A stretch of 64,000 nt of DNA, taken from an uncultured virus (IMG/VR IMGVR_UViG_3300044796_000330). Lineage: Duplodnaviria > Heunggongvirae > Uroviricota > Caudoviricetes. The notes below the pieces were generated by a model. It had not been told where the DNA came from. It searched no databases and was given only the letters and a program-made list of their open reading frames with translations. The stretch lies in the IMG/VR virus record IMGVR_UViG_3300044796_000330; one strand, 5' to 3'. The translations under genes were made by a program, and so were the position numbers. Shown here piece by piece: positions 4,645 to 54,063 of this stretch. Within the stretch, counting starts at the first letter, position 1; each line of letters begins with the position of its first letter.

Positions 4645-4659
4645 GGTTCAAATGAGTGA

Positions 4660-5484
4660 TTAGGTCTTCTTGTGCCTTGTACGCCGAGCCCCATCCAACT
4701 GATTGCTAATTGCACTCAATGGTCTCAAATTTTTTAGATCCCAAGCCTTCTTGAAATTGGCATCACTCATAGACGTGTATGGGGTTTCTGATTGAGGCGT
4801 GATATGATCAATTTGCCAAGCCCAGGTTGATTGATCTGCGTCGTTCCAAGATTCTCTTCTGTATGTTCCGTGATTTTGCCACGTCATCCACGGTTCAAAC
4901 ATTGATTCGAGATGGGTCTTAAGTTGTTCGATAGTGTATGGAAGGAATTCCATCACAGAATGGCCGCCTTTATCACGGCGAATCATATTGTAGATCGCGG
5001 TATTTACGATTCTTCGTAGTCGATAGACCGGATCATTTTTATGTCTTGTCTTCACATAGTCGTTGTTCTTGGCTCTAACTTTCGGATCGTTCTTTCTTCG
5101 TTCAGCTGCTTGCATATTTTGACGTTTATATACATCTTCTCTGTTATTTGCAACATACTTAAGTTGATTTTTAGCTCTGATCTTGTAATCACAACCGATG
5201 CACCGCGAGGATATTCGCCATTTACTTCCTCGCATAATTACAAACTCAATAGCTGGTCTATTGTTTTTACACACTCCACACAATGTATCTTTAGTGTGCG
5301 TCAAAAATTGATCGATGCGCTCCAAAGAAGTTTTTGTAGTTGGTCTCCTTCCTCTGCCATTTAGACACGTATTGCATACCCCTCTCCAATAGCCATTCGG
5401 CTTATTTTTCTCGTTTCTCCATCTGAAAAATTCTGTGGTTAGTGGTTTATTCTCCCCACATTGAAAGCAAATCTTCATTGTCAT
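4660..5484 (-). CDS. HNH homing-type endonuclease with Zn ribbons
   Basis: CxxC pairs; HLESMFEPWMTWQNHG...WQIDHITP...NLRPLSAISN. Confidence 0.8.
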   Translation of the reverse strand: MTMKICFQCGENKPLTTEFFRWRNEKNKPNGYWRGVCNTCLNGRGRRPTTKTSLERIDQFLTHTKDTLCGVCKNNRPAIEFVIMRGSKWRISSRCIGCDYKIRAKNQLKYVANNREDVYKRQNMQAAERRKNDPKVRAKNNDYVKTRHKNDPVYRLRRIVNTAIYNMIRRDKGGHSVMEFLPYTIEQLKTHLESMFEPWMTWQNHGTYRRESWNDADQSTWAWQIDHITPQSETPYTSMSDANFKKAWDLKNLRPLSAISNQLDGARRTRHKKT

Positions 5485-5747: not shown

Positions 5748-7181
5748 ATGTCTAATCAAGAAGTTCGAGTAAGAATCGCGCCATCAAACTCAGGCGCCGA
5801 TGTCCATGCTGGCAACGTTAGAGCAGCTCTCTACAATTATCTCTTTGCTAAACAAAACAAAGGGGTATATCTTCTACGCTTCGAGGATTCAGATTCAGCT
5901 CGCTGCAAAGATGAATATGCCGATAGTATCACCGAGACGCTCCGTTGGATCGGTTTGCCTCCCGACGAGGGGTATGGTACAGATAACAAGCCATGCGGGC
6001 ATTATCAGCAATCAAAGAAGCTCGAACGCTATCAAGAGTTCGTGCAAGAACTAATTGAACGTGGTGCTGCCTATCGCTGCTATTGTGATAGTGCGATGCT
6101 GGACAAGGAACGCGAAGAGGCTATCGCAAAGAATCCCAAAGCCCCGTGGCGTTATGACGGAAGGTGCCGCGATCTAAAATCGCAAGATAAAACCAAGTCT
6201 CACGTTGTGAGATTCAAGACCACAACAGAAGGCGAAGTCGTTCTAAACGACTTGGTATTCGGCAAAATGACTTTCCCTAACAAGGAGAATCAGGACTTCG
6301 TTATTATGCGCTCAAACGGGTTCCCTCTCTACAATCTATCTGTTGTAGTCGATGATCTCGATATGCGGATATCGCACATCCTACGTGGCTGCGATCATAT
6401 TTTAAATTACACCGCGCAGGCCGCCATCTATAATGCTGTGGGCGCTACGATTCCGGTGATGGCACACTTTCCGATGATCCGTGCTGCTGACGGAACAAAA
6501 CTCGCCAAGCGCAATGGAGCATCAATCATTCAGTATCGCGAAGCTGGCTACACTCCAACCGCAATTCTAAACTATCTACTTCGCCTTGGTTTCGGTTGCG
6601 GCAACCAAGAAATTTTCAGTCTGGACGAGATGATTGAGAGGTTTTCTTTCAGTGGATGTAGTAAGAATGACGCAAAGTTCGATCCGAAAAAGTTCGAAGC
6701 AACAAATACGACTCATTTGAAGTCTGTCGATCTAACCTCTGATGACGATTATGTATCACGGGTTGTTCCGTTTCTTTCAGCTCGCGGCATCGAAAATTTC
6801 AACATTGATAGCGTCAAGTCTCTTATTCCTCTCATCCGCGGGAGAGCGAAAACATTCATCGAGGCTGCTGATATGCTCGATCCGTTCCTTCGCGATACTC
6901 CCGTCATCGATCAAACCGCAAAAGATAAACTCATCACCACAGAAATCAAAACAAAGCTCGCTGAATATACCGCATTCCTTTCTGGAATTGATACCTGGGA
7001 AGCACCCGTGCTCAACGAGCAATCTGTGAATTGGATGGCAGCGCACACCACGTCAATCAAAGAGATTGGCCAGCCCATTAGAGTCGCAATTACAGGTAGA
7101 ACAAATTCGCCAGAGTTGTTCCAAACAATGGCAGCTCTCGGCAAAACAACAACCATCAATAGGCTAAAGAATCAGCAATGA
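5748..7181 (+). CDS. gltX: glutamyl-tRNA synthetase
   Basis: RIAPS..HAGN (HIGH equivalent), RFEDSD, CYC..YDGRC Zn site, VVDD..RGxDH, KLAKR, PIRVAITG..SP anticodon domain. Confidence 0.95.
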   Translation: MSNQEVRVRIAPSNSGADVHAGNVRAALYNYLFAKQNKGVYLLRFEDSDSARCKDEYADSITETLRWIGLPPDEGYGTDNKPCGHYQQSKKLERYQEFVQELIERGAAYRCYCDSAMLDKEREEAIAKNPKAPWRYDGRCRDLKSQDKTKSHVVRFKTTTEGEVVLNDLVFGKMTFPNKENQDFVIMRSNGFPLYNLSVVVDDLDMRISHILRGCDHILNYTAQAAIYNAVGATIPVMAHFPMIRAADGTKLAKRNGASIIQYREAGYTPTAILNYLLRLGFGCGNQEIFSLDEMIERFSFSGCSKNDAKFDPKKFEATNTTHLKSVDLTSDDDYVSRVVPFLSARGIENFNIDSVKSLIPLIRGRAKTFIEAADMLDPFLRDTPVIDQTAKDKLITTEIKTKLAEYTAFLSGIDTWEAPVLNEQSVNWMAAHTTSIKEIGQPIRVAITGRTNSPELFQTMAALGKTTTINRLKNQQ

Positions 7182-7513: not shown

Positions 7514-7542
7514 TTGACAGGGCGAAAAACAATGATTACAAT
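7514..7542 (+). promoter_or_regulatory. sigma70-type promoter
   Basis: TTGACA-17nt-TACAAT, intergenic. Confidence 0.8.
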
Positions 7543-13825: not shown

Positions 13826-14038
13826 ATGAGTATTGGCAAGTGTTCTTGTTTGAGTGTAAAGGACTTCAAGCTTGGGGATAGAGTCAAAGTGGTGTTCATT
13901 GAGACATTATGGAAGCGTCATTTTGATGTTGGGTCAATTGGAACCGTTCTTTATATTGGTGCCAGCAACATTGATGTTCGTATAGAAGGCTACGGAATAA
14001 CCACGCTTGCATCTCAGAGGTTAGTCAAAATCAAATGA
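13826..14038 (+). CDS. small SH3-like protein (GKCSCL family)
   Basis: GKCSCL..F.LGD.V.VV shared with 52874-53777 cluster. Confidence 0.65.
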   Translation: MSIGKCSCLSVKDFKLGDRVKVVFIETLWKRHFDVGSIGTVLYIGASNIDVRIEGYGITTLASQRLVKIK

Positions 14039-14798: not shown

Positions 14799-15617
14799 GT
14801 GCCTGACAAGATTCTACTCATAGATGCCCTGAACTTCATATACAGAGGAAACGTCAGCTTTAAGCCAAGCGAGAAAACCTCTCAATTCACCGTAGTTTAT
14901 GCGTTCTTTCGAAATCTTCGAGCGTTAATTGAGCAATTCTCCCCATATCGTGTTTTCTTTGCTCTCGAAGGCTCAAACAACTTCCGATACAAACTGTATT
15001 CCGATTACAAGGCAAACCGTATTATAAAGCGCGGATCGGTGGTTCCGCCCGAACTTTTCGATGCACAAAGAGATATTATCGTCAATCTTCTTCCGAGCCT
15101 GCCAATCACTCTCGTCAAAGCAAACGGATACGAGGCAGACGATACGATTTTCAACCTTGCACTATCTCTGCAAGACGAACATATTACCGTAGTAAGCACA
15201 GACAAGGATTATACGCAGCTCCTTCAAAAGGGACTCCCTAACATCGAAGTATTCAATCCCACCAAGAAAGAGCTTTTCAAGCTTCCAGATTATCACTTCA
15301 TCACGTTCTTATCTCTTGCGGGAGACTCATCAGACAATATACCAGGATTAGTTAGCGAAGAGGTTGCGGTAAATCTCGCGCAAGACCCAGATGCATTGCT
15401 TGACTTTTTGTCAATCGAAGAGAATCGTGCCAACTTTAATCTCAATCGAGAACTTATCGAGTTCAAACGATTCGACGACAGTGAGTTTGAATTCACAGAA
15501 TACAACACAGACTTCGATTACCTGAAACTGGAATTCGAGAGAATGGAATTCGCCTCCATCATCGAGCCCAAATATTGGGCAAAGTTCATCAACACATTCA
15601 AGCAACTGGAGACATAG
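14799..15617 (+). CDS. 5'-3' exonuclease / flap endonuclease (PolA N-terminal / T4 RNase H family)
   Basis: LLID, YKANR, EADD, STDKD, GDSSDNIPG motifs. Confidence 0.9.
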   Translation: MPDKILLIDALNFIYRGNVSFKPSEKTSQFTVVYAFFRNLRALIEQFSPYRVFFALEGSNNFRYKLYSDYKANRIIKRGSVVPPELFDAQRDIIVNLLPSLPITLVKANGYEADDTIFNLALSLQDEHITVVSTDKDYTQLLQKGLPNIEVFNPTKKELFKLPDYHFITFLSLAGDSSDNIPGLVSEEVAVNLAQDPDALLDFLSIEENRANFNLNRELIEFKRFDDSEFEFTEYNTDFDYLKLEFERMEFASIIEPKYWAKFINTFKQLET

Positions 15618-15620
15618 CAA

Positions 15621-16127
15621 ATGGGTTTCAAGATCACTCGCCAGAGATACAGCAATGAGAACAACGGGCAAGGTCAGCTCGCGGTAGAAATCTGTTCTGG
15701 CACCAAACACGTTGGTGATGACGTTCTCACAACCCGATACAAGGATTTGGGTGAATCCAAGTATCTTGTCAATCCGGTTGATGCCTTTAACTGCGCAGTC
15801 AGAATTATCAACAAGTGGAATCTTGACTATCACGATGAGCTGAAAAAGGTCGCAATCGTTAACGCTGATGGTAATGGTGGCAAGGAATACTTTGACATCA
15901 GCAGCAAGCGCGAGTTGCAGGAGCTTGAGAAGCTCTCGAAAAACATTCTTGCCAAGATGAGCCACTGCGGAAGCTGTCATCGTCCGCTCGGCAACTCGAA
16001 GAAGATATTCAGCACCGACGATTTGCCAAACCACGAATTCTGCGACGAAGTTTGCGGTTCTCGCAAGTATAGGGATATGTATGGGGTAGAGATGCCGAAA
16101 AAGAAGGTTGCGAAGGTGAGAGTCTAA
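15621..16127 (+). CDS. hypothetical Zn-ribbon protein
   Basis: CGSC...FCDEVC. Confidence 0.55.
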   Translation: MGFKITRQRYSNENNGQGQLAVEICSGTKHVGDDVLTTRYKDLGESKYLVNPVDAFNCAVRIINKWNLDYHDELKKVAIVNADGNGGKEYFDISSKRELQELEKLSKNILAKMSHCGSCHRPLGNSKKIFSTDDLPNHEFCDEVCGSRKYRDMYGVEMPKKKVAKVRV

Positions 16128-16128
16128 A

Positions 16129-16395
16129 ATGCAATACGCGGCCATACTTAATGCGGAGGGTGGTTGGAAGGCTGTCCTCGTTAGGAGAGACGGAACTGTG
16201 TCCATTGTTCAGATTGCCAGATGGGGATCAACAACGGCTACGTTTTCCGATCCGGCTCCCCTTTCAAGTTATGGGGAAGACTTGAGAGCCAAAAAGAACT
16301 TCGTGCTAATGCTAAATCCCAATTACCCAATGACCGATGAGCAAATTGCATCCGCAGCGAAACGCAAGGCACGCGAACTTCGCTGGATCGATTGA
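16129..16395 (+). CDS. hypothetical protein
   Basis: ORF abutting previous gene. Confidence 0.5.
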   Translation: MQYAAILNAEGGWKAVLVRRDGTVSIVQIARWGSTTATFSDPAPLSSYGEDLRAKKNFVLMLNPNYPMTDEQIASAAKRKARELRWID

Positions 16396-16420
16396 CAACG
16401 CCACATCGAGTGGTTAGCAT
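16392..16420 (+). promoter_or_regulatory. sigma70-type promoter upstream of the candidate ncRNA
   Basis: TTGACA-17nt-TAGCAT. Confidence 0.75.
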
Positions 16421-16431
16421 CTAAAAGACTT

Positions 16432-16661
16432 GGGAGCTGGGATCGCCGCACTCTGTCGGACGAGAGGCTTGCGCGATGCGCGTCGAACGCACGCAAGCCC
16501 GCGACACGTGCTCTATGGCACTCCATTTGAGGCAGGCGCCCATATGGTCTCTCTGACGTGTCCGCGGCCTACCCTGGCGCGTAGCCGCAAAGCGTGGCTA
16601 ACCTCGACACCGAGACTTGACCATCAGCCAGCCGATCGTGTGAAAACGACTGCTCCCGCCA
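16432..16661 (+). ncRNA. unclassified ~230-nt structured RNA with tRNA-like GGGAGC.../...GCUCCC-GCCA ends
   Basis: GC-rich island after a promoter; terminal 6-bp stem plus GCCA; several internal stems. Confidence 0.65.
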
Positions 16662-16681
16662 ATTTCACCACAACAACTACT

Positions 16682-17041
16682 ATGTCTATGCCGGAAAGCT
16701 ACAAGCGATGCTATAACAAATTGCGTGTTGGGGACTTCTTGTGTTTAGGATTGAGAGCGGACGGTTCATTGTCTTGGTGCGAAGATGAGGCATCGTCTCA
16801 AACACCACCAGTAAAAGTGATTGGTATTTCTGCCAGACAGTCCAATATGGAAGGATATCGCAAATACCTGCTCGTCGGAAGCAACGTGCATGTTCCTGGT
16901 TTCTGGATAGAAAACAGCGGAAGCTTGCCGCAATCAGAAGTCTTCTTGGAGAAGGCTGATGATTTTGACCAATACACCTATTGTAGGTGGATTTATGGTC
17001 AGAATCGAATTGTCAAGATCGACAAGCGACGGGCAGTGTAA
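16682..17041 (+). CDS. hypothetical protein (C..K/R.R.GD family)
   Basis: Paralog of 17041, 36774, 59742, 60436; start set by N-terminal alignment. Confidence 0.6.
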   Translation: MSMPESYKRCYNKLRVGDFLCLGLRADGSLSWCEDEASSQTPPVKVIGISARQSNMEGYRKYLLVGSNVHVPGFWIENSGSLPQSEVFLEKADDFDQYTYCRWIYGQNRIVKIDKRRAV

Positions 17042-17412
17042 TGACTAACATCGGCAACAAATATTGCATCAACCGTTTGTGTGCGGGTGATTTTATTCGC
17101 CTCGGGTTGAGTGAGAATGGTTCGCTGGCGACCACATCGAATGATACTCGTAATACTGTTCGTTCGGAGACGCCGTTTGTAAAGGTGATTGGACAATCCG
17201 AAAGATTAACAAATCACCCTGACCATACAAAGTATCTATTACTTGGCTGTATGTCGCATACCACGGGTTTCTGGCATAGAGAAAGTAGCAGCCTGCTTTC
17301 GAAAGACGAAAGATTCATCTCTGTATCTGACGACTTTGCCAACTATACGTGGTGCAGATGGTGGTATGGACAAAACGTAATCACCAAGATCGAAAAACAA
17401 CGGAAGCTATGA
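17041..17412 (+). CDS. hypothetical protein (C..K/R.R.GD family)
   Basis: Tandem paralog: GDF..LGL..GSL..VKVIG..GFW..YT.CRW.YGQN. Confidence 0.65.
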   Translation: MTNIGNKYCINRLCAGDFIRLGLSENGSLATTSNDTRNTVRSETPFVKVIGQSERLTNHPDHTKYLLLGCMSHTTGFWHRESSSLLSKDERFISVSDDFANYTWCRWWYGQNVITKIEKQRKL

Positions 17413-17909
17413 CCCCACGCTCCGCCTCCGTCAATCTATTGGCAAACTACGCAGCCATCGCTCGTGGCAATGTAGAGGCTCTCGCTCGACGAGAAGCTAT
17501 CGCTGGCAGCGAGAACCTAAAAGGTTATTGCGCCATTGCTTCAAGACACTTGTGGATGATGGCCATCCACTTAAAACCAGTTCTTTGTGCCGGTGTATTT
17601 CGCCAATACGACAAGGACACCAACAAGTATTTTCCCATCTCTGGGCACGTGTGGCTTGAATTGGATGGATACATCGTTGATATCACGGCAACCCAATTTG
17701 CTGGCACACCAAGCAAAGTCAAGAGGGATTTCGGCAAAACTGTATATGTTTCCCCGTTGCCGAATCCACACTATCTAAAGACACACTCGGGCGATAAGGC
17801 TTTCGAGAGAATCCGGAATTGGCACGAGGCGCCTCTTGACGATATATGCGCCACGATTCCAGATCACACGCGCCTTCTAACAACTCGCCGCCGCAAGAAA
17901 TCAAAATGA
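17409..17909 (+). CDS. transglutaminase/papain-like Cys-His-Asp protein
   Basis: GYCAIAS...GHVWLE..G.IVDITATQF. Confidence 0.55.
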   Translation: MTPRSASVNLLANYAAIARGNVEALARREAIAGSENLKGYCAIASRHLWMMAIHLKPVLCAGVFRQYDKDTNKYFPISGHVWLELDGYIVDITATQFAGTPSKVKRDFGKTVYVSPLPNPHYLKTHSGDKAFERIRNWHEAPLDDICATIPDHTRLLTTRRRKKSK

Positions 17910-20900
17910 CGCGACCAAATCAAACGGATATCGAAAAGACAACTCTTGCGTCTTGGCAAAAGTCAGGAGCTTTTGAGCAGTCCAATAGTTGCCGCAAGGG
18001 TAAGCCATTTGTCATCTATGATGGTCCGCCTTTTGCAACAGGCAAACCTCACTTCGGACACATCCTTGTGTCAGTGATCAAGGACGTTGTTGCTCGATAC
18101 CAGAATATGAACGGTCGCCCTGTTCCGAGACAATTCGGATGGGATTGCCACGGTTTGCCAATCGAGAGTATTGCGCAAAAAGAACTCGGTATGTCTGCGT
18201 CCGAGGTTATCCGCAATGATATGGTGGGCGTATTCAACACTAAATGTCGCTCACTTGTCAATAAGTGCGAGGCAGATTGGGAAGATACTATCAATCGCAT
18301 TGGCCGCTGGGTAGATTTCAAATCTCCCTATCGCACGATGGATCTCAATTATATGGAGAGCGTCTGGTGGGCGTTCAAGCAAATCTACCAGAAGGATCGT
18401 ATCTATAAGGCTCATCGTATCATGGCGTATAGCGGAAAGCTAATGACGCCTTTGAGCAATTTCGAAGTAAGCGATAACTATCGAGAAATCGAAGACTATT
18501 GCGTTGTTGCAAGTTTCCCTGTCAAAGCATTTGATCTGGAATTTTCCGTCCTTGCTTATACCACAACGCCTTGGACTCTTCCAAGCAACGCTGCATTGTG
18601 CGTTCATCCCGAGCACAATTATTGCATCGTTGAGGATATCGCAAGTAAAGAAAAGTTCCTGCTTGATCCTGCACGCATCACGGCACATTTTAAGGATGGT
18701 GTAAGAATCCTTAAGTCTCTCAAAGGAATTGATCTCGTTGGGCTTAAGTATGAGCCGATTTTCGATATGCGTGAGAAGGCCAAGGAAGGCCAAGATAAGT
18801 TCTATACGATTGTTGCGGATACCTATGTTTCATCTGAGGATGGGACAGGCGTTGTTCATATCGCTCCGTGCTTTGGGGAAGATGACTACCGAATTGGTAA
18901 GGCCAATAACCTTCCCATGCTTGATTTCCTCGATGGTGAGTGCAAGTTCGATAGCAATGTTGGGTGTCTCTTCGAGTATAAGGGACAGTTCTGCAAAGAT
19001 GCGGACGGGCGTATCGTTATCAATCTCGGTAAGATCGGCAGGCTCTATGAGAGCGGCAAAATCAAACACAACTATCCGTTCTGCGATCGAACTGATTCAC
19101 CAATCATCTATCGAGCCATTGACGCTTGGTATTTGAAACTCGAAGATCTAAAAGACAAGCTTGTTGCTAATAACGCAAAGATCAATTGGGTTCCCGAGCA
19201 CGTCGGTTCTGGTAGATTTGCCAACTGGCTGAAAGATTGCAAGGATTGGAATATCTCCCGTAATCGTCTATGGGGATCGTGTATTCCTTTGTGGGTTGCC
19301 AAAGATGGCGATACTATCTGTGTTGGTTCTATCAATGAGCTTGAGAAGCTTTCTGGGCACCGCATCACCGATTTGCACAAGGACTTCCTTGACACAATCA
19401 CGATTGTGAAAGGCGGGAAGGAATACAAGCGTGTTCCCGAAGTTCTCGATTGTTGGTTTGAGAGTGGAGCCATGCCTTTTGCACAGTTCCATTTTCCTTT
19501 TGAGAACAAGGAGGTTTTCAACAGGAACTTCCCAGCAGACTTCGTAGTTGAGGGGCTTGATCAAACTCGTGGATGGTTCTATACGCTTCTTGTTCTTTCG
19601 ACGGTTCTATTCGAGCTTCCTCCGTTTAAGAACGTAATCGTCAATGGCTTGCTCTTGGCCGAAGATGGCGCCAAGATGAGCAAGAGCAAAAACAATTACG
19701 CTGATCCAACCACCATTCTCGATAAGTATGGTGCCGATGCGCTGAGGATGTATCTTTGCTCCACTCAGGCTACTCACGCGGAACCTGTCGCATTCAAAGA
19801 GCAGGATCTCGAAACCATCAACAAACAGATTATCCTTCCATTCCTTAATGCGTTGGACTTTTTTACCCTGTATGCAAAGCACGACAACTGGAGCGAGAAG
19901 GATCGCGTGTTCGCGTGTGAGCGTAAGCTTGATGGTTGGATTATGGCGAAGTTTGATCTCTTGGTAAGAGATTTGCGCACTTGCCTTAATAGGTTTGAAA
20001 TCTGGAAGGCAGCTCCAAAGATTGCAGAGTTTATGGATGACTTGTGCAACTGGTATATCAGACTATCTCGAAAGGTATTCTGGGGGTCTAACTCGAACGA
20101 GAAGAGTAGTGCATACTATTCGCTATTCAACGTGCTCCTTGGTTTGTCGAAAGCCTTGGCACCATTTATTCCATTCACAGCGGACTATGTATTTAATGCT
20201 CTGAACCAGGAAGGAAGTGTTCATTGCAAGAACTATCCTATGGTTGCAACATACTCGCTGAGGCTAATTGAGGAAATGGATGAGGTTCGTAAAGTTGCGA
20301 ACATTGCAAGACGCATCCGAGCAAAGAGCCAACTCAAGACACGACAGCCTCTCGCCAACATGACGGTATTCGGCTCCAAAATTGGCGTTGAGGATTTGCC
20401 ATTGCTAAAGGCAGAGATCAATGTCCAATCTGTGTCTTTGAAGTCGTTCTCCGAGATCAAAGTTCAACTTGAATGTAAGCCCGATTACAGAAAGGTTGGA
20501 GCTGTATTCGGAAAGGACTCACAGCGCATCTTTGCAATCATCAAGGACAAACTGAATAACGTGCAACTTGCACGTTTGCATTCTGGCAAAAGTGTTATCT
20601 CTGATAATGTCGAAATCACTTCAGACTATGTCATCATCACTGAAAAAATCGATGTCAATGGGGCGTTCTTGTCCGACGATAAGATCACCGTTGTTCTCGA
20701 CACACATCTAACTCCCGATCTAATCGAATTGGGTTTCGTTAGCGAATTCCGTTCCATCGTTCAGAACATTCGCAAAGAAGCTGGGCTCGAAATGGCAGAT
20801 CGCATCTATACGGAAGTATTTGCCGGTGCTGATGCCACAAGAGTGCTTGAAAAGCATAGAACAGATCTGCTTCAGCAATTGCTTTCAAGCGACATGAAGT

Positions 20901-20992
20901 TCTTCCTTCCCCTCAATGTTCCCATGAAAGAGGTTCATAAGATCAAGATCGATAACGAGTATATGTTCCTGCGTCTCTATAAAGAGGGTTGA
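17906..20992 (+). CDS. ileS: isoleucyl-tRNA synthetase, type 2
   Basis: DGPPFATGKPHFGH, GWDCHGLP, TTTPWTLPSN, GTGVVH, WNISRNRLWG, EGLDQTRGWF, KMSKS. Confidence 0.95.
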   Translation: MTRPNQTDIEKTTLASWQKSGAFEQSNSCRKGKPFVIYDGPPFATGKPHFGHILVSVIKDVVARYQNMNGRPVPRQFGWDCHGLPIESIAQKELGMSASEVIRNDMVGVFNTKCRSLVNKCEADWEDTINRIGRWVDFKSPYRTMDLNYMESVWWAFKQIYQKDRIYKAHRIMAYSGKLMTPLSNFEVSDNYREIEDYCVVASFPVKAFDLEFSVLAYTTTPWTLPSNAALCVHPEHNYCIVEDIASKEKFLLDPARITAHFKDGVRILKSLKGIDLVGLKYEPIFDMREKAKEGQDKFYTIVADTYVSSEDGTGVVHIAPCFGEDDYRIGKANNLPMLDFLDGECKFDSNVGCLFEYKGQFCKDADGRIVINLGKIGRLYESGKIKHNYPFCDRTDSPIIYRAIDAWYLKLEDLKDKLVANNAKINWVPEHVGSGRFANWLKDCKDWNISRNRLWGSCIPLWVAKDGDTICVGSINELEKLSGHRITDLHKDFLDTITIVKGGKEYKRVPEVLDCWFESGAMPFAQFHFPFENKEVFNRNFPADFVVEGLDQTRGWFYTLLVLSTVLFELPPFKNVIVNGLLLAEDGAKMSKSKNNYADPTTILDKYGADALRMYLCSTQATHAEPVAFKEQDLETINKQIILPFLNALDFFTLYAKHDNWSEKDRVFACERKLDGWIMAKFDLLVRDLRTCLNRFEIWKAAPKIAEFMDDLCNWYIRLSRKVFWGSNSNEKSSAYYSLFNVLLGLSKALAPFIPFTADYVFNALNQEGSVHCKNYPMVATYSLRLIEEMDEVRKVANIARRIRAKSQLKTRQPLANMTVFGSKIGVEDLPLLKAEINVQSVSLKSFSEIKVQLECKPDYRKVGAVFGKDSQRIFAIIKDKLNNVQLARLHSGKSVISDNVEITSDYVIITEKIDVNGAFLSDDKITVVLDTHLTPDLIELGFVSEFRSIVQNIRKEAGLEMADRIYTEVFAGADATRVLEKHRTDLLQQLLSSDMKFFLPLNVPMKEVHKIKIDNEYMFLRLYKEG

Positions 20993-21391: not shown

Positions 21392-22120
21392 ATGGCAATG
21401 ATATCATCGAAGAAATTCCTATCAACAAAGTCTGCTGGCAAACTGCCATCTTCGCTGAAAGATCATCCCTATTTTAGGGACAACAAATACTTGGAGAAGA
21501 TATTCCCGAAGATTGGGTTGAAGAACGATCGAGTTAGAAACGCCTATAAAGATCCACAGTTTGGTATGCTTGACCTTGTGTTTTCTGCCGCTGGAACACA
21601 ATGCTTTTACGACTTGGCGACGATGAGTATGCGTGGAGCGCTGAGTTGCATGCATTGGGCAAATTCACACTCAACCCACGTTATCGGATCCGTCGTAGAT
21701 CCTTTTTGCGCAATCATTTATCTGACAGACCGCAAACACACAAAGTATGGTCGCTCTATCATTAAGCGATCTCTTGTGAGGTTGCTTGCCAAAAGCAACG
21801 ATCATACGCCCCATCTTTTCATCGAACGCCCTTATACGAAATCCGATAACACCGATCCTTTCAGGTATGCCAATAAATGCAACAATCCAAATGAGATATC
21901 TACCGTGTTTGCCAACTATCTATCCAGCAAAACTGGACTTGAAGTAAGGCACACTGGCTCTGTCTATATTCCCGCCTACATTCCACACCATAAATCGCTT
22001 GCAAAACTCACATATAGAGAAAACTCTATTAGTGATTTTGGGCTTGGATACTATGAGCCAGTAATTGCGGATAAGTTTATGCGGGAGCTGAAGCCTTTGG
22101 CGCCACGCTCGACGCAGTGA
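21392..22120 (+). CDS. TMSMRG-family paralog 1 (short form)
   Basis: IFPKIGLKN; YDLATMSMRGALSCMHW; IGSVVDP..IIYLT. Confidence 0.8.
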   Translation: MAMISSKKFLSTKSAGKLPSSLKDHPYFRDNKYLEKIFPKIGLKNDRVRNAYKDPQFGMLDLVFSAAGTQCFYDLATMSMRGALSCMHWANSHSTHVIGSVVDPFCAIIYLTDRKHTKYGRSIIKRSLVRLLAKSNDHTPHLFIERPYTKSDNTDPFRYANKCNNPNEISTVFANYLSSKTGLEVRHTGSVYIPAYIPHHKSLAKLTYRENSISDFGLGYYEPVIADKFMRELKPLAPRSTQ

Positions 22121-22127
22121 AAGTCGC

Positions 22128-22156
22128 TTGACAGCAGCTAACCCAATGACTATGAT
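22128..22156 (+). promoter_or_regulatory. sigma70-type promoter
   Basis: TTGACA-17nt-TATGAT. Confidence 0.85.
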
Positions 22157-22212
22157 GACGGGAGCCGTTGCGCTCCTGCGATATTCCTAAACCAACACAA
22201 CACAAAATCAAA

Positions 22213-23781
22213 ATGAGCAACTCAACAAAAGACATTCTTGCAGCACATAAGTATCCGCCGAAGATTAAGTCGCACGACATCTTCAAAAAGACAAAGGAAA
22301 TCAAGAAGGTCTTCCCCGAAATTGGTCTCCCCAACTGCGAAAAAGAGCTAACCATCGACAATAGCAAAGAGAAGATTGCCGCGGCGCAATCCTTGCTTGT
22401 TGGTATCAAGGAAGCCACCGTTCGTCGATTTACAAATCTCGACAAGTGGGAAAAGAAGAAGGCTGACGAGGAGGATCTTACTGACCTCCGCAAAGAGAAG
22501 ATTGAGAACTGCAAGTTTATCCTCAAATCCCTTCAGACCGACATCGTCAAAAAGAAGAAGAACTTCTGCGTCATTAACGATGGCAAGCTGACCATCAACC
22601 TTCCTTCTGAAATCAAAGACAAGAGTGGCAAGGTTGTTTTCAAGCCCGGCGAGCGGCTCTTTGGTGTCTATAACAAGCTCAATAGTATGCTCACCGATGG
22701 TAAATTCCGTCCTTTGGTTCCTCTCGAAGAAATTCCTCAGTTCAAGGATTTCAGTTCCAAGAACGTTCCCTCGAATAAGATGACCGTTCGCTTCTCCTCC
22801 GATGGTGAGGAGGGAGTTTGGGATATTGCAACGATGAGTATGCGTGGGATTAGCTCGTGTCAAACGTGGGGAAACGGGAACGCAACTCATGTTGTCGGTT
22901 CGATGGTCGATCCATTCACTGGAATCATCTATCTCACCACTGGTGGAAAGTTCAATGAGCACGGATCTAAAATGATCCGTCGTTGCGTTGTTCGGTTCGT
23001 TGTCAATGAAAATACCAAAAAGCCGTATCTCTACCTTGAGCGCATGTATCCATCTCACGAGGAAAGCACACACAAGACATTCGTTGATTTTCTCCGCGAA
23101 AGAACTGATGGTAAGTTCGAGATCAAGGGGCACACACATTCTCTTGCTGGATCGTATGTCCCACTGAGCAGTGTTGTGCGTAATTTGAACGCAAATGATC
23201 AACCTTATCGTGATAGCGGCGTGATGTATAAGAATGACGTTAACGATATGAAGGCAAAAGCGCGCGATGGCGTCGAAGCAAAGATGCTCAAAATCTACTC
23301 GACCATCACAAATGAATTCCGACAAGCTGCCAACAGCATTAAGCCTGATGAAGTTTCGAAAGAACAAGAACAGAGCATAAAAGCTATGGTTGGCAGTGAT
23401 TATCACTACGATTACAGTTATTACTACTACGAAAACGTGGTGGCAATGGCGAAGAAGCACTTGGCTGACTTCGACATTTCGAAGTATGAGAACGCCGATG
23501 CTTTGATCAAGGATGCTGTCGAGAAGTTGGCAAATTCGAAACTCAAGGCAAAAATTGCCTCGGCAATCAGATTGACCATCAAGGGGAACAAAATTCCTTC
23601 GACCTACAAGAACATAAGCCCGAAGATCATTACCAGCCTGTCCGATGCTGCGAGTGAGAAGATTTCTGCTGCTTTGAAGAAGGAAAGCGAGAAGCTGGAG
23701 AAATCTGTTGCAAAAACGATCGCTATCAAGGCGAAGGCAAAGAAGGAAGAAGTTCCCGTGTATGTGAAGCTTCTCGAATGA
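22213..23781 (+). CDS. TMSMRG-family paralog 2 (long form)
   Basis: VFPEIGLPNC; WDIATMSMRGISSCQTW; LERMYP. Confidence 0.85.
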   Translation: MSNSTKDILAAHKYPPKIKSHDIFKKTKEIKKVFPEIGLPNCEKELTIDNSKEKIAAAQSLLVGIKEATVRRFTNLDKWEKKKADEEDLTDLRKEKIENCKFILKSLQTDIVKKKKNFCVINDGKLTINLPSEIKDKSGKVVFKPGERLFGVYNKLNSMLTDGKFRPLVPLEEIPQFKDFSSKNVPSNKMTVRFSSDGEEGVWDIATMSMRGISSCQTWGNGNATHVVGSMVDPFTGIIYLTTGGKFNEHGSKMIRRCVVRFVVNENTKKPYLYLERMYPSHEESTHKTFVDFLRERTDGKFEIKGHTHSLAGSYVPLSSVVRNLNANDQPYRDSGVMYKNDVNDMKAKARDGVEAKMLKIYSTITNEFRQAANSIKPDEVSKEQEQSIKAMVGSDYHYDYSYYYYENVVAMAKKHLADFDISKYENADALIKDAVEKLANSKLKAKIASAIRLTIKGNKIPSTYKNISPKIITSLSDAASEKISAALKKESEKLEKSVAKTIAIKAKAKKEEVPVYVKLLE

Positions 23782-23791
23782 GAGCGCCGCC

Positions 23792-24007
23792 ATGAGTAAA
23801 AAGCACGATAAGAACCAACGAGCTTGGCAGAAAATTACATCCCACGTAATGCGTGGTGAGGAAGCGGTTGCTTTGCTTGAATCAATTCACATATACGATC
23901 TTCTTGCGGCTCCCACAACACGAAAAGAAGATAGTCATAAGAACGCGCAGCTTGACGATATTCGCGCAAGATTGAATGCGTTTTTCGAATTCGACGACGG
24001 AGAATAA
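23792..24007 (+). CDS. hypothetical protein
   Basis: Small ORF between paralogs. Confidence 0.5.
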   Translation: MSKKHDKNQRAWQKITSHVMRGEEAVALLESIHIYDLLAAPTTRKEDSHKNAQLDDIRARLNAFFEFDDGE

Positions 24008-24009
24008 CA

Positions 24010-24975
24010 ATGGCGTTCCTCACAAAGAAGATTGCTTCTTCGAAAAAGTGGCCGAACTGGCTTAAAGCGGGAATCACAAAGTCCAAATCAATCAAGAAGG
24101 CCTTTCCTTCCATTGGTTTGAAGAACTGTTCTGGCAAAACAGATACATCCATCGTTGATGATATGGTGATTAGTCATTTGGATGCAGCCATCTGCGATGG
24201 AAATGATGACGATCTCTTGTTCGAGACCAAGGCAGAGGTGTTGGCGGCAGAAGCGTTATACATTGCAAATAGCATCCTCAAGAATGGTTCTCTTGTGATG
24301 AAAAGCGATCTTGTATCGCCCTGGGGCAAGATATTGTGCAAGAAAGGAGAGAGCGCTTCTAAACTTCTTGCCAAGAAAGCACCGCATCTAAAGCGCATAA
24401 CGTATCGCCACAGCAAATCAATTTGCGATGAGATTGTTCGTCTTTGCGGTTCGAAATCAAAGCTCAAGATCGTATTCTCATACGATCCGTGGGATATCGC
24501 TACGATGAGTATGCGTGGAATCTCTTCTTGCCAGTCTTGGAATAGCCATTACAAAGAGTGTGTGATTGGATCTGTTGTCGATCCGTATGCGGCGGTGATT
24601 TATATCACTGACGGATCCAAGACACAATACGGTGAGAGAATGCTTGCGCGCTCTGTCGTAAGGATTGTCGTTCCATCGAAGGAACAAAAAGATATCCAAT
24701 ACTGGAAAACCCATAGGAAAACAAGAGCAACCTCGATCTTTATCGAGGAGCCTTACATTGCCTCGGAAGATGATTCCGAAACAAACGCAGACTATGTCCG
24801 TGTGTTTGCGGACTTCATCACCTCAAAACTTGGCAATAAAGTCAAGATTGTTTCTGGCTACGATAGTCATAGGTATCAAATACCTATGTCGGATGCCGTG
24901 AAGAAAATCAACGTTAGCCAACGATCCTATATTGACAGCGGACTATCGTATGAAGATGGACAAAGCTCTTCTTGA
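24010..24975 (+). CDS. TMSMRG-family paralog 3 (medium form)
   Basis: AFPSIGLKNC; WDIATMSMRGISSCQSW; IEEPY. Confidence 0.85.
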   Translation: MAFLTKKIASSKKWPNWLKAGITKSKSIKKAFPSIGLKNCSGKTDTSIVDDMVISHLDAAICDGNDDDLLFETKAEVLAAEALYIANSILKNGSLVMKSDLVSPWGKILCKKGESASKLLAKKAPHLKRITYRHSKSICDEIVRLCGSKSKLKIVFSYDPWDIATMSMRGISSCQSWNSHYKECVIGSVVDPYAAVIYITDGSKTQYGERMLARSVVRIVVPSKEQKDIQYWKTHRKTRATSIFIEEPYIASEDDSETNADYVRVFADFITSKLGNKVKIVSGYDSHRYQIPMSDAVKKINVSQRSYIDSGLSYEDGQSSS

Positions 24976-25001
24976 CAACCAGTCTCGCCAGTGATTACAC
25001 T
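24972..25001 (+). promoter_or_regulatory. sigma70-type promoter
   Basis: TTGACA-18nt-TACACT. Confidence 0.7.
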
Positions 25002-25040
25002 TGGTGTAAGAGCGAGACATACTGAGACATTATAAAGCAA

Positions 25041-26645
25041 ATGAAGATTGCATCCAAAGACATATTCAAGAACAAGAACTACGCCAAGTATATTGCCACC
25101 CATCCAATCTTCGACAAGATTGAAAAGGTCAATAAAGTCTTCCCTGGCATTGGTTTGCCAAACTGTGAGGACGACAAAATCGTCAATAACGCTGAGATTG
25201 CGGCCAAGAGTGCAAAAACTCTCATCGGCTCAATCACCGCCTCTCTTGATAAGAGAGAGAAGGGTCTTAACGCATTTGTCGATACGCACCCTAAAATGGG
25301 CGAGAAGCGTAAAGAGAAGGCCGAAAATCTCATCAAGATCATAAACGCCACAAAATCGCTCATAGCGGATAATGTCGATAAATGCGTTCTTGTGGATAAG
25401 AAATGCGTCAAGATTATGCTTCCCGGCGATCTTACAATCGATGGCGGAAAGAAGCCTATCTTCAAGGCCAACAAAACCATCATCAGCGTTTATGGCAAGA
25501 TCAACGAGCTTTTGCAAGATGGCAAGTTTGCTCGAATGAAGAATATCGATAACGATCCTGCATTCAAAGAGTTCAGCAAGGATAACATTCCAAATGCTGG
25601 TTTGAAGGTCGTTTTCTCGTCGGAAGGATCTGATGGTATTTGGGATATTGCTACGATGAGTATGCGCGGTGTATCGTCTTGTCAGTCTTGGCAGAACGGT
25701 GCATACAAGCACGGCGTTATCGGTTCTATGATCGATCCGTTTGTTGGCATCATCTATCTTACGACTGGTGGCAATTTCAACGAATACGGATCGAAGATGA
25801 TCAAGCGCTGCATTGTGCGCTATGTCGTTGATGGCAAAACGAAAAAGCCATACTTGGCTCTCGACAATATGTATCCATCATTTGATGCCAATGTTCTCAC
25901 TCAGTTCATTGAGTTTCTCAAAGCTCGCGTTAGCAACAAACTGGAAGTCTATTTCGCCTCTCACCTGTATGGCAGGCCAATCTATAACACCTCTTATGTT
26001 CCGCTTACGAAAGTAAGGGAGAGTTTAGAGAACTACGGTGCAAGAGATCCATATAGCGTAGGCGCAATCGTTGCGTATCAGGATGTAAAGTTCCCGAGCA
26101 AGAAATCCACCAACGATCCAAAAGAAGCTCTGTATGCAAAGAACATCGTCAGCAAGGGACAGAAATTCACACAGAACTTCATCGCCGCTGCCACTGAAGC
26201 ATTCAAAAACATCGACATAAAGCTATTTCCGGAAGCAATCCATCCAACGATCCAAAGCCTTACAGGCGTTGCGATCGGTAAGGGACTATACAACAACAGC
26301 TATCTAATCCCCGAGCTTATGAGGGTCATTGCCAAGGGCTTCATCGAAAGCGTCAATTCTGCTGACTTTGCTAACTCTGATACATACATACGAAGAGTGT
26401 ATTACAACTACTTCAATCGAAAAGAACTTGTGTTCAGCTCGATCAAAAACAATCTCGTCAAGCAGATGAATGGCGGGATGGGTCTCAAAAAGAAGAACCG
26501 CATCAATGCCGATCATCTAACTGTGATGATGCAGGTTATCCTCAGTAAGACTGACGACATTATGCGAGACAAACTCCGCAAGCTTGTTAGCAGGCGTAAG
26601 TTTTCAGGCGCGTCGCCGATCCCCGACGGGGCGAGCACTTCCTAA
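25041..26645 (+). CDS. TMSMRG-family paralog 4 (long form)
   Basis: VFPGIGLPNC; WDIATMSMRGVSSCQSW; LDNMYP. Confidence 0.85.
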   Translation: MKIASKDIFKNKNYAKYIATHPIFDKIEKVNKVFPGIGLPNCEDDKIVNNAEIAAKSAKTLIGSITASLDKREKGLNAFVDTHPKMGEKRKEKAENLIKIINATKSLIADNVDKCVLVDKKCVKIMLPGDLTIDGGKKPIFKANKTIISVYGKINELLQDGKFARMKNIDNDPAFKEFSKDNIPNAGLKVVFSSEGSDGIWDIATMSMRGVSSCQSWQNGAYKHGVIGSMIDPFVGIIYLTTGGNFNEYGSKMIKRCIVRYVVDGKTKKPYLALDNMYPSFDANVLTQFIEFLKARVSNKLEVYFASHLYGRPIYNTSYVPLTKVRESLENYGARDPYSVGAIVAYQDVKFPSKKSTNDPKEALYAKNIVSKGQKFTQNFIAAATEAFKNIDIKLFPEAIHPTIQSLTGVAIGKGLYNNSYLIPELMRVIAKGFIESVNSADFANSDTYIRRVYYNYFNRKELVFSSIKNNLVKQMNGGMGLKKKNRINADHLTVMMQVILSKTDDIMRDKLRKLVSRRKFSGASPIPDGASTS

Positions 26646-26665
26646 TCTAAAACATTCGTGACCAC

Positions 26666-26694
26666 TCGACTTCGACTCGACGGATGACTACATT
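26666..26694 (+). promoter_or_regulatory. possible sigma70-type promoter
   Basis: TCGACT-17nt-TACATT preceded by ATGAC, as in other promoters. Confidence 0.5.
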
Positions 26695-26789
26695 CGTCGA
26701 AGCCAATCTCTTCGGCGTGATGGCACCACCTATGCCACCGCAGCCATTCTTTCTCAGTCTGACCTATCATCAATAGGACCAAAACAACA

Positions 26790-28358
26790 ATGATCACAAA
26801 GAAAAACACCCACCTGACCACCGAACTTTTCGCCGGGAAGACCAACATTCCCGACTTCGTAAAGCAACACGCTGTCTTTAAGAAGCCCACAAAAGTTCAG
26901 AAGGTGTTCCCGGCAATTGGTATGCCGAATTATCGAGAGAAGGCTAACCTCGATAAGTGCCTCACCGACATCAAAAAGGAAGGCACTTATGTTTGGAACC
27001 TGCTTAAGGTTATGAGCGATCTGCTTCTTTCCGCAAAGGCGGGTTTGACCGAGCACGCCGATAAGTTTCAGTTTCTTCTCACCCGCAAGCAGCGCGAGGA
27101 GAAGCGCGAGGAGATGGGTGATCTTTTTAATCTCTGCTCCATTGTCAATGAATTGCAGCTTTGCACCGATCCGTCCCAAAAGGATGTTCTGGAAGAAGCA
27201 ATCAAGACGGAGGAGGGGAAAATCTCTCTTCGTCTCATTAGAGACATCAGCAACACGATCGGTGGCAAAGTCAAGCTCGCTCATCGTAAAGGTGAGGGTC
27301 TTTTGAGGGCATATGCAAAAGTTGCCGAAAGGTGTGCCGTTTATGGCGTTGTTCTTGCTCCGCTTGATCAAACAGAGCAGTTCAAGATTTTCAGCAAGGA
27401 GAACATTCCGAATAAGGAATTCTGCATCGTATGGTCGTCCGAAGGCCCCGAAGGTGCGTGGGATGTTCTCACAATGAGTATGCGTGGGATTACGTCCTGC
27501 CAGCGATGGGAGGGCGAATACCCCAAGTGTCTCATTGGGAGTATGCTATCGAAATTCGTTGGTATCATGTATCTTACCAGCGGCGTTATGAGCGATGGCA
27601 ATGACAAGAATGGGAATCGCGCCAATCTCGGAACCAAGATGATGCGTCGGTGTGTGGTTCGTTATGCAATTAACGCTGACGAAGATAAGCCGTGCATTGT
27701 CATCGACAAGATGTATCCGGATCTCGATAAGGATGTTCTGAAACTCTTTACCGATTCGATCAAGGCGAGAACCAATCTCGAAGTTATCTATGCGCCTGAT
27801 CCGAACAACAAGCTTCGCCACATCTATCTCCCCGCGGAGAAGATCAATGAAGACATTATGGATAGAGAGAAGTCCTATCAGGATACTCCGCTGAAGAGCC
27901 GCTATGATCTCTATGCGATTCTCCTCAACTTCAATCGTGATGAGGTTGAGCGCGAGTTGAAGGGTTTCAACGTCAATCTGTCGCTGTTTATGGCTCGAAG
28001 ATTCGAGGACATTTATAGCGGTGGAGTATCCGTTAGCCCAGAAGTCAAGAAGATGGTGAATAACATTCGCATGAATACATCATTCACTCCTCTCTGCGAC
28101 AAGATCGTCAATCACATTGTGGCGAGTTTTGCTCGTCCGCCGAGCAACGAACACTCACACAGCGGAACTTACTATCGCAAGTATCTGCGTGAGTTCCTCA
28201 TCAACCGCAAGAAGATTATGTCTTCTGCTCAGACAAACATCAACGCAATCGTGGCTCAGCACTCGTCTCGTCAAATCGAAGGAAATGCGTTTGTCGAGTA
28301 TATGTTCTCCATTGCTGTGGAATTCGCAAAGAACGAAATCAAGCGTTGCATCAACTAA
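26790..28358 (+). CDS. TMSMRG-family paralog 5 (long form)
   Basis: VFPAIGMPNY; WDVLTMSMRGITSCQRW; IDKMYP. Confidence 0.85.
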   Translation: MITKKNTHLTTELFAGKTNIPDFVKQHAVFKKPTKVQKVFPAIGMPNYREKANLDKCLTDIKKEGTYVWNLLKVMSDLLLSAKAGLTEHADKFQFLLTRKQREEKREEMGDLFNLCSIVNELQLCTDPSQKDVLEEAIKTEEGKISLRLIRDISNTIGGKVKLAHRKGEGLLRAYAKVAERCAVYGVVLAPLDQTEQFKIFSKENIPNKEFCIVWSSEGPEGAWDVLTMSMRGITSCQRWEGEYPKCLIGSMLSKFVGIMYLTSGVMSDGNDKNGNRANLGTKMMRRCVVRYAINADEDKPCIVIDKMYPDLDKDVLKLFTDSIKARTNLEVIYAPDPNNKLRHIYLPAEKINEDIMDREKSYQDTPLKSRYDLYAILLNFNRDEVERELKGFNVNLSLFMARRFEDIYSGGVSVSPEVKKMVNNIRMNTSFTPLCDKIVNHIVASFARPPSNEHSHSGTYYRKYLREFLINRKKIMSSAQTNINAIVAQHSSRQIEGNAFVEYMFSIAVEFAKNEIKRCIN

Positions 28359-28372
28359 GAAGGACAACATAA

Positions 28373-33124: not shown

Positions 33125-33153
33125 TTGACATGGCGACGCCGAATGACTATGAT
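33125..33153 (+). promoter_or_regulatory. sigma70-type promoter
   Basis: TTGACA-17nt-TATGAT. Confidence 0.85.
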
Positions 33154-35179: not shown

Positions 35180-35221
35180 CTTTTAATCGTGCGCCTCCAA
35201 TCGGAGGGCTCGCCGGTGCAC

Positions 35222-35250
35222 TTGACGAGCGCGCATCGAATGACTATGAT
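35222..35250 (+). promoter_or_regulatory. sigma70-type promoter
   Basis: TTGACG-17nt-TATGAT. Confidence 0.8.
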
Positions 35251-35297: not shown

Positions 35298-35329
35298 AAG
35301 AGCAGCTCGTAGCTCTATAAATACGAGAC
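35298..35329 (+). repeat. dispersed 32-nt element copy 1 (predicted H-type pseudoknot)
   Basis: AAGAGCAGCTCGTAGCTCTATAAATACGAGAC, identical to 49668-49699. Confidence 0.85.
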
Positions 35330-41149: not shown

Positions 41150-41178
41150 TTGACAGGATGAGCGTGAGTGATTAGAAT
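41150..41178 (+). promoter_or_regulatory. sigma70-type promoter
   Basis: TTGACA-17nt-TAGAAT. Confidence 0.8.
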
Positions 41179-46432: not shown

Positions 46433-46462
46433 AAGAGCAGCTCGTGGCTCTATAATACGAGT
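46433..46462 (+). repeat. dispersed element copy 2 (variant pseudoknot)
   Basis: AAGAGCAGCTCGTGGCTCTATAATACGAGT; differences preserve pairing. Confidence 0.8.
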
Positions 46463-46485
46463 ACAAAGAAAATACAGCCCTGAAG

Positions 46486-49667: not shown

Positions 49668-49699
49668 AAGAGCAGCTCGTAGCTCTATAAATACGAGAC
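49668..49699 (+). repeat. dispersed 32-nt element copy 3 (predicted H-type pseudoknot)
   Basis: Identical to 35298-35329. Confidence 0.85.
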
Positions 49700-53511: not shown

Positions 53512-53519
53512 GTGAGAAA

Positions 53520-54007: not shown

Positions 54008-54034
54008 ATTCCAATGCCAAAATATTGGCGGGAC

Positions 54035-54063
54035 TTGACATCGCCTCGCCCGATGACTATGCT
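54035..54063 (+). promoter_or_regulatory. sigma70-type promoter
   Basis: TTGACA-17nt-TATGCT. Confidence 0.8.

Follow-up and report, generated by a model that had tools for sequence, protein, structure and literature searches.

The stretch analysed here, called the window throughout, is a 64,000-nucleotide (nt) DNA from an uncultured Caudoviricetes virus (IMG/VR record IMGVR_UViG_3300044796_000330), whose contig on record measures 137 kb. It is apparently part of a large phage genome, with dense plus-strand open reading frames (ORFs) and genes for a ClpP-like protease, a 5'-3' exonuclease, an NAD ligase and two aminoacyl-tRNA synthetases encoded in full, GluRS (5748-7181) and IleRS (17846-20992). 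Between the ORFs at 16129-16395 and 16682-17041 lies a 286-nt gap of 61-64% GC, compared with a window mean of 44.9%; GC content per 150 nt also reaches its window-wide maximum here (0.66). An initial annotation, made from this sequence alone, had placed here a promoter-driven structured RNA closed by a tRNA-like acceptor stem. The sequence features that it named, namely, the promoter, the GC-rich island, and GGGAGC/GCUCCC followed by G-CCA at 16658-16661, were all found at the positions given, and ileS, said to lie about 1.2 kb downstream, starts at 17846, 1185 nt downstream of the RNA. Comparison with homologous loci indicates that 16428-16665 is a conserved, folded noncoding RNA (ncRNA), seen to date only in a small clade of jumbo phages from soil, peat and wetland. 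The features of the locus are as follows.

15621..16127, plus strand: gene for a conserved 168-aa Cys4 protein, a homologue of which lies directly upstream of the RNA in the relatives
16129..16395, plus strand: 88-aa ORF between the Cys4 gene and the RNA, present in this lineage only, without family or real relatives
16392..16420, plus strand: sigma-70-type promoter TTGACA-17-TAGCAT, from a consensus scan (10/12 matches)
16428..16665, plus strand: whole RNA element, a full-length covariance-model match, the conserved part of which ends in the tail GCCAAUUU
16682..17041, plus strand: 119-aa ORFan downstream of the RNA, starting at ATG 16682 and not related to the 161-aa ORF found at the corresponding place in L005, L006 and L037

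Relatives of the locus were sought along several routes. Among GenBank phages, no DNA similarity to the RNA was detected, the surrounding 7 kb gave only two marginal matches of 150-185 nt, and tblastn with the 168-aa Cys4 protein returned nothing. Viral contigs yielded no relatives via the 119-aa ORF, IleRS or an exact 24-mer of the RNA 3' end; metagenome contigs yielded none via IleRS, and a search with GluRS gave only two distant and nonsyntenic loci (L002 and L003). The window also encodes seven paralogues of 242-544 aa in which the motif WD.ATMSMRG..SC..W is invariant (WDIATMSMRG..SCQ in the window copies), located in a tandem array at 21392-30007 and at 57678-58412. This family had no Pfam or PHROG match. 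An alignment of the seven paralogues retrieved seven IMG/VR loci (L004-L010) on jumbo contigs of 157, 406 and 428 kb, and the family is present in multiple copies on these related 157-428-kb phage contigs as well.

Two of the retrieved loci, L005 and L006, were syntenic with the window, as judged by tblastn of the window ORFs. Both have the order exonuclease, homologue of ORF 15621-16127, gap, DUF5915 protein and then the paralogues, and in both the gap opens with TTGACG-17-TACAAT. The RNA ends read GGGAGCG...CGUUCCC-GACAAUUU in L005 and GGGAAUG...CAUUCCC-GCAAUUUU in L006. We then scanned viral, metagenome and species-genome contigs with a pattern of three motifs common to the RNAs. The metagenome scan returned 18 loci, 5 of which were real (four identical to L005 plus a new variant, L037) and 13 of which were chance matches; the viral scan returned three, two on the L005 and L006 contigs and one by chance, and none of the 11 loci from the species-genome contigs was a real member. 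In L005, L006 and L037 alike, a homologous promoter (TTGACG or TTGACT, 17 nt, TACAAT) and an RNA of 205-215 nt lie directly after the homologue of ORF 15621-16127. The RNA occurs once per record in the phage records G001 and G002, and no copy was detected at E <=1 in the complete 428-kb G003.

To ask for the same RNA in the window, two roughly calibrated covariance models were built without the window sequence: R1 from L005 and L006, and R2 from L005, L006 and L037. With filters off, R1 returned 16428-16665 as the top and full-length match of the whole window (14.3 bits, E = 0.056; runner-up, 8.8 bits). R2, run over both strands of the 64 kb, returned the same segment, again top and full length (16.1 bits, E = 0.011; runner-up, 10.7 bits), and the best score among 21 decoy loci fitting the same sequence pattern was 10.9 bits. 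The R2 limits agreed within 4 nt with the ends that the initial annotation had assigned to the RNA. Window and relatives have in common the position, the promoter, the 5' GGGA, the 3' YUCCCG-NC-AAUUU and the GCAAAGCGU hairpin. The signature found in all four lineages consists of a sigma-70-type promoter, GGGA..., a 7-bp closing stem (P1) with the 3' strand YUCCC, and then G-N-C-AAUUU (the L006 tail being 1 nt shorter).

The related loci showed several further features. At the syntenic place in L005 and L006 (L005 6394-7365), only a free-standing DUF5915 protein, corresponding to the C-terminal domain of IleRS, is encoded. In L006, about 0.9 kb of AT-rich sequence (4100-4950) is inserted between the exonuclease and Cys4-protein genes, with an apparent reverse-strand ORF; the insertion is not in L005 and could be a mobile or homing-endonuclease-like insert. 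A 17-mer scan gave six loci: two known contigs and the unrelated L011, L012, L013 and L015, none of which matched R1 at E <=1. L011 and L015 are related GC-rich viral contigs that have the 17-mer GAGGCGTGCCCGCAAGC in common (on the reverse strand), with long flanking similarity and a repeated ATCTTTCA, and the RNA models do not match them.

The consensus fold of the RNA is a four-way junction in which P1 closes a variable hairpin (P2), a branched domain (P3-P5) and a hairpin next to P1 (P6). Its parts in the window are as follows.

16432..16439, plus strand: 5' strand of P1 (GGGAGC, U, G), pairing with 16650-16657
16440..16524, plus strand: P2 domain, a long irregular hairpin of about 85 nt here versus about 53 nt in the relatives
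16531..16633, plus strand: branched P3-P4-P5 domain, placed by model alignment and constrained fold; P3 is GGC.GGC/GCC.GCC, and P4 pairs AUGGUC (16544-16549) with GACCAU (16619-16624)
16550..16558 with 16605..16615, plus strand: P5
16559..16581, plus strand: P5a
16582..16600, plus strand: P5b, the hairpin UAGCCGC-AAAGC-GUGGCUA (pair probability 0.74-0.99)
16636..16649, plus strand: P6, the hairpin UCGU-GUGAAA-ACGA, in which 4/4 scored pairs are compensatory
16650..16657, plus strand: 3' strand of P1 (C, U, GCUCCC), pairing with 16432-16439
16658..16665, plus strand: single-stranded conserved tail GCCAAUUU, which includes the 'CCA' and reads GACAAUUU in L005 and L037 and G-CAAUUUU in L006

Covariation was counted on the same sequences from which this fold had been derived. 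In the three relatives, 97% of 167 pair cells held standard pairs and 15 of the 56 pairs were compensatory, a count reached by none of 500 shuffles and compared with at most 2 in slid controls. When the window was added, 96.7% of 211 cells were paired and 32/56 pairs were compensatory (slid controls, <=5). RNAalifold, applied to the four-lineage alignment, gave nearly the same structure, with 53 pairs, 32 of them compensatory.

The changes are spread over the helices. All seven P1 pairs are kept in the four lineages, two of them with compensatory changes; the stem comprises 7 bp in the relatives and, in the window, 6 bp, a U.U mismatch and a G-C pair (pair probability 0.99-1.0). Seven of the eight pairs of P5 (helix 8 of the model) show compensatory change. 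In P5b, five of seven stem pairs do so, and the apex, made up of G.U, C-G and the loop AAAGC, is the same in every one of the four lineages. P6, preceded by a 2-nt linker, has a stem of 4-6 bp and abuts the P1 3' strand directly in L005, L006 and L037, with one inserted U before the GCUCCC run in the window. The P2 domain is handled mostly as an insertion by the models; folded alone, it forms a single hairpin (-33.3 kcal/mol), which contains the GGCUUGCG/CGCAAGCC helix inside a window-specific expansion. Its apical loop, CGUCGAA, compares with GUCCAAA in the relatives, GUC-S-AA being common to both as judged by eye, and the linker between P2 and P3 ends in GA. The reverse complement of the single-stranded segment 16615-16635, considered as an antisense target, had no other site in the window at <=3 mismatches.

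Six helices had been drawn in the initial annotation. P1, GGCUUGCG/CGCAAGCC, UAGCCGC/GUGGCUA (P5b) and UCGU/ACGA (P6) fit the comparative model and have probabilities of 0.74-1.0 in the ensemble of the window sequence. The other two do not fit: CCGCG-ACACGU/ACGUGU-C-CGCGG competes with the conserved P5/P5a and has a probability of <=0.04, and CUCG/CGAG, which competes with the same helices, is present in the single-sequence minimum free energy (MFE) structure but is unsupported by comparison.

The RNA did not correspond to a described family. Rfam 15 gave no match at gathering score over the whole window and none at E <=10 on 16000-17000, the tRNA, transfer-messenger RNA (tmRNA) and YrlA models included; on six loci, the L005 and L006 copies among them, its only match was to a small nucleolar RNA (E = 0.3), lay elsewhere and is irrelevant here. 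ARAGORN reported no genes, and no tmRNA or tag peptide, in the window, L004, L005, L006 and L037. A full-text literature search gave no account of such an RNA in titles or abstract openings.

Could the gap hold no RNA element at all, being instead a GC-rich N-terminal extension of the 119-aa ORF (from TTG 16430 or ATG 16544) or a DNA site such as an origin or packaging site? The frame is indeed open from TTG 16430 to 17041, into the 119-aa ORF; in a near-identical contig the ORF had been called as a 170-aa gene, and two of three natural substitutions are synonymous in this frame by our reading. By our own arithmetic, however, an open frame of 84 codons at 62% GC is expected in about one-quarter of such regions, and the advantage of this frame over the others under a codon model was about 0.1 nat per codon, versus 0.25-0.5 for real genes here. 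When the 203-aa read-through product was compared with 5.8 billion proteins, 2 of 93 candidates passed, namely, the 119-aa product of the window itself and a single near-identical copy, so that the N-terminal extension had no relatives in that search. No plus-strand ORF of >=30 aa runs through the RNA region of L037, and the only ORF of >=50 aa spanning the RNA in L005 is on the minus strand and is not shared. The TTG-started frame, checked for protein-like conservation, thus showed none. The helix changes are compensatory and include G.U pairs, which work on one strand only. A separate shuffle script gave z values of -1.2 to -2.0 on the plus strand and of about 0 on the minus strand; the invariant P5b G.U pairs and an excess stability confined to the plus strand fit an RNA read from that strand. 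As for a DNA site, the GC island contained no iterons or tandem repeats. We regard both versions of this explanation as extremely improbable. With no match to Rfam, ARAGORN or tRNA models, no conserved coding, and homologues in three other lineages carrying compensatory changes, the proposal of an unclassified phage ncRNA with its own promoter is supported.

The additional suggestion of a processed or chargeable tRNA mimic was not supported. Such an RNA would imitate the acceptor and T arms by means of P1 and P6, would be processed by the enzymes of tRNA maturation (RNase P, RNase Z and the CCA-adding enzyme), and would be charged or act as bait for tRNA-targeting defences. The overall shape is in fact that of a cloverleaf, a closing stem with three arms; P6 adjoins the P1 3' strand and with P1 makes up an 11-13-bp stack, a G comes directly after P1 in 4/4 lineages, and the phage has GluRS and IleRS. 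After this G, however, the sequence is CCA in the window, ACA in L005 and L037 and CAA in L006, followed by a conserved AUUU, so that 'CCA' is encoded in one of four lineages and conservation extends beyond the supposed 3' end into CAAUUU. Many bacterial tRNA genes lack a CCA sequence. An encoded CCA is therefore not required of a tRNA-like RNA, and its absence from the relatives weakens the idea without being decisive. The P6 loop, the position of which is kept, measures 4, 6, 6 or 8 nt (GUGAAA, UAAAGGUU, AAAG and GAUGGU), and no conserved 7-nt T-loop (UUCRANY) on a 5-bp stem was found in P6 across the four lineages. Neither a D-loop nor an anticodon arm has an equivalent, and the ARAGORN and Rfam results likewise speak against a tRNA-like molecule. 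Judged across the lineages, the encoded GCCA reads as a lineage-specific coincidence and not as a tRNA end, and we consider a mimic or decoy very unlikely.

These likenesses and differences can be set against known RNAs. With tRNA (RF00005) and with the tRNA-like domains of bacterial Y RNA/YrlA (PMC4201824), the RNA has in common a four-way junction, a 7-bp closing stem, a T-arm-like adjoining hairpin and a purine after the stem, as well as, for tRNA and in this lineage, the encoded CCA end. It differs in its length of 205-235 nt and in lacking the D-loop, T-loop and anticodon arm, the CCA in most lineages and any ARAGORN or Rfam match. Like tmRNA (RF00023 and its clan), it has paired 5' and 3' ends around a large internal domain; unlike tmRNA, its third P1 pair, at alignment columns 7/298, is G-C in 4/4 lineages, not G3.U70, and neither a tag peptide nor an Rfam match was found. 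Phage-borne tmRNAs exist. In contrast to the rod-like 6S RNA with its central bubble, the consensus is a four-way junction, again without an Rfam match.

We next considered how the RNA may be transcribed. The pattern TTGACA-N17-TANNAT occurs exactly five times in the window, on the plus strand only, versus 0.15 expected. These near-consensus sigma-70-type promoters lie at 7514-7542, 16392-16420, 22128-22156, 33125-33153 and 41150-41178; two further promoter-like sites with one hexamer mismatch, likewise on the plus strand, lie at 35221-35250 and 54034-54063. The family often has a common -10 region, (A/G)(A/G)TGA(C/T)TA..AT, and suggests early operons driven by the host RNA polymerase. The promoter of the RNA, the -35 hexamer of which contains the TGA stop of the 88-aa ORF, has a spacer/-10 region (GAGTGGTTAGCAT) similar to that at 41150 (GAGTGATTAGAAT). 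A search for relatives of the 88-aa ORF itself gave one 20-residue match of no value.

Some neighbouring observations concern similar sites. After the promoter-like site at 54034-54063, a GC-rich leader of about 70 nt (54064-54134) precedes ATG 54135 and is dissimilar to the RNA. Other GC-rich islands, at 33.9-34.3 kb and 37.3-37.5 kb, consist of coding sequence and have no similarity to it. A 32-nt element occurs three times (35298-35329, 46433-46464 and 49668-49699; two copies are identical) and consists of a GC hairpin, GAGCAGCTCGTAGCTC, followed by TATAAATA, which we take to resemble the T4 late-promoter box; the element may be a terminator and late promoter unit.

The stretch was present in peat, soil and pond metagenome runs and in one metatranscriptome. 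We compared four runs over 15600-17500, of which X4 and X5 are small-share runs with only short near-identical pieces. The metatranscriptome contigs covered 15995-16402, 16447-16857 and 17139-17471 at depths of 5.4, 3.3 and 7.5, although contigs of this kind reveal neither ends nor expression levels and the RNA library may include DNA. The gap at 16402-16447 covers the promoter and start region. The contig at 16447-16857 joins the RNA and the 119-aa ORF, a hint of cotranscription. This ORF carries in-frame insertions of 12 nt and 3 nt in near-identical relatives, the behaviour expected of a real gene, and its ATG at 16682 is preceded by an A/C-rich, Shine-Dalgarno-poor leader, as is usual before genes here. 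Farther downstream, in runs X3 and X4, the segment 17053-17436 (which holds ORF 16987-17412) is swapped for another sequence starting with a TTGACA promoter-like site and looks like a small exchangeable gene cassette.

The main rival to a free-standing ncRNA is a cis-acting 5' leader, which would influence its own transcript or the polymerase producing it. Such a leader could stabilise the 5' end through its terminal stem, bring about processive antitermination in the manner of HK022 put, or respond to a protein or ligand on behalf of the operon towards ileS. The RNA is always the first segment transcribed after the promoter, simple scans found no terminator-like site between it and the next ORF in the window or L005, the RNA-library contig is unbroken over 16447-16857, and a long plus-strand gene array lies downstream. 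The gene that follows, however, is not conserved, being the 119-aa ORFan in the window and a 161-aa family without similarity to it in L005, L006 and L037, and the start codon follows the RNA at distances of about 20 to about 50 nt inside a single clade, with no conserved Shine-Dalgarno-sequestering or terminator platform seen. The RNA therefore did not show the consistent association with one downstream gene family expected of a riboswitch or gene-specific leader; the varying gene and spacing, together with the single copy per record, mark it as an independent module. The element also follows only one of the five similar window promoters, and its approximately 210-235 nt and 11 helices far exceed the needs of stabilisers or put RNAs, given the sizes generally attributed to these. 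With HK022 put and other promoter-proximal cis RNAs it has in common a structured RNA placed right after an early promoter and not separated from the genes by a terminator; unlike put RNA, it is about three times larger and multibranched. On balance, a leader function seems the less probable of the two.

Phages also provide precedents for RNAs taken out of leaders. P4 CI RNA, P1/P7 C4 RNA (Rfam C4) and T4 stable RNA species 1 and 2 are leader-derived, RNase-P-matured RNAs of about 70-140 nt. The RNA described here is similar to them in lying at the front of, or within, a longer transcript and in its tRNA-like features, and those RNAs are then cut out. It differs in being larger and of another family (no match at E <=10), and the cutting-out is known for those RNAs.

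The Cys4 protein encoded upstream is a neighbour of the RNA in the window and in L005, L006 and L037. It is 43-46% identical to the L005 and L006 proteins, and its family comprises 32 clusters in a large protein collection, 31-78% identical to the window protein. Gene and RNA are both present in G001 and G002 and both absent from G003. The structure model of the protein is confident (pLDDT 87.5). Foldseek against the PDB gave nothing at E <=0.001, and VIA gave a best Z of 4.0; the C-terminal zinc ribbon (residues 112-157) aligned repeatedly to TRASH domains and to ribosomal protein eL24 with Z values of 3-4. As a weak lead from the model, this likeness hints at nucleic-acid binding, and the protein would be the most obvious candidate partner of the RNA. 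Separately, a 67-nt repeat occurs five times in the window (61-72% identical), at 13835-13901 and 52889-53595, in what are apparently small paralogous ORFs starting G(K/R)CSC, four of them in tandem.

Taking these observations together, we favour, with a probability of roughly 0.6, the explanation that the RNA is a member of an undescribed structured-RNA family which is made at the 5' end of an early transcript and acts as a stable, protein-binding ncRNA, maybe after being cut free. The host-type, sigma-70-like promoter directly ahead would start transcription at about 16426-16428, 0-5 nt before P1, and the RNA would be produced as the 5' end of the early transcript. It may then be released by a cut in the conserved A/U-rich tail, which resembles what we take to be an RNase E-type cleavage context, and may serve as a stable RNA bound by protein, with the upstream zinc-ribbon protein as a candidate partner.

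A number of observations weigh against this explanation. Only four distinct lineages are available, too few for a formal covariation statistic such as R-scape, and pairing is favoured by the way in which the window row of the alignment was made, namely, by fitting to the model. The thermodynamic signal of the window is weak: 16432-16661 has an MFE of -93.7 kcal/mol and a z value of -1.58, with 15 of 200 shuffles as stable. In the full-length ensemble, P3-P5 has a probability of only 0.02-0.06, and the homology-constrained fold lies 11.7 kcal/mol above the MFE (-81.9 versus -93.6). Natural variation within the RNA amounts to three substitutions in near-identical relatives, at 16450 (A>G), 16520 (A>G) and 16579 (G>T), not enough to bear on the structure. 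The RNA-library contig crosses 16661 into the ORF and so gives no discrete 3' end, and its depth of 3.3 does not exceed that of its neighbours; this low, flat depth does not suggest an abundant free small RNA. The link between the Cys4 protein and the RNA consists of adjacency and of one genome without both, which a single insertion or deletion explains equally well.

With regard to the fold, thermodynamics alone does not show an RNA beyond chance, and the comparative evidence, that is, the homologues and their covariation, is decisive. The L005 and L006 RNAs fold with z values of -2.83 and -3.45. The segment 16525-16665, folded alone, recovers P3-P5, and the P2 domain and the core, when folded separately, each match the comparative structure; given these separate-domain folds, sequential cotranscriptional folding would favour that structure.

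As far as sequence comparison can tell, the RNA represents a new family within a known broad category, the phage-encoded structured RNAs. Like the orphan RNAs raiA, HEARO, GOLLD and ROOL, some of which are phage-borne, it has a complex conserved fold and is GC rich compared with its surroundings; unlike them, it matches no model, is smaller than GOLLD and ROOL, and has been seen in one jumbo-phage clade only. RNAs of more than 200 nt with a complex fold and real covariation are rare, and earlier ones proved to be ribozymes, riboswitches or ribonucleoprotein scaffolds. A bolder variant, which we consider distinctly unlikely, is a new ribonucleoprotein scaffold in which the tRNA-shaped RNA and the Cys4 (TRASH/eL24-like) protein would engage the tRNA-handling or translation machinery of the host early in infection. 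If true, the complex could, for example, lure defence nucleases directed at tRNAs or serve the phage GluRS and IleRS as a platform.

The locus also illustrates how misleading a "tRNA-like CCA end" can be when it is read from one sequence only. What it presents is an RNA behind a strong early promoter, in giant phages with translation genes, beside a zinc-ribbon protein without a clear fold match, and with two invariant hairpin or loop motifs that resemble putative binding sites. It offers a concrete and testable way to approach how uncultivated jumbo phages may use RNA in taking over their hosts.

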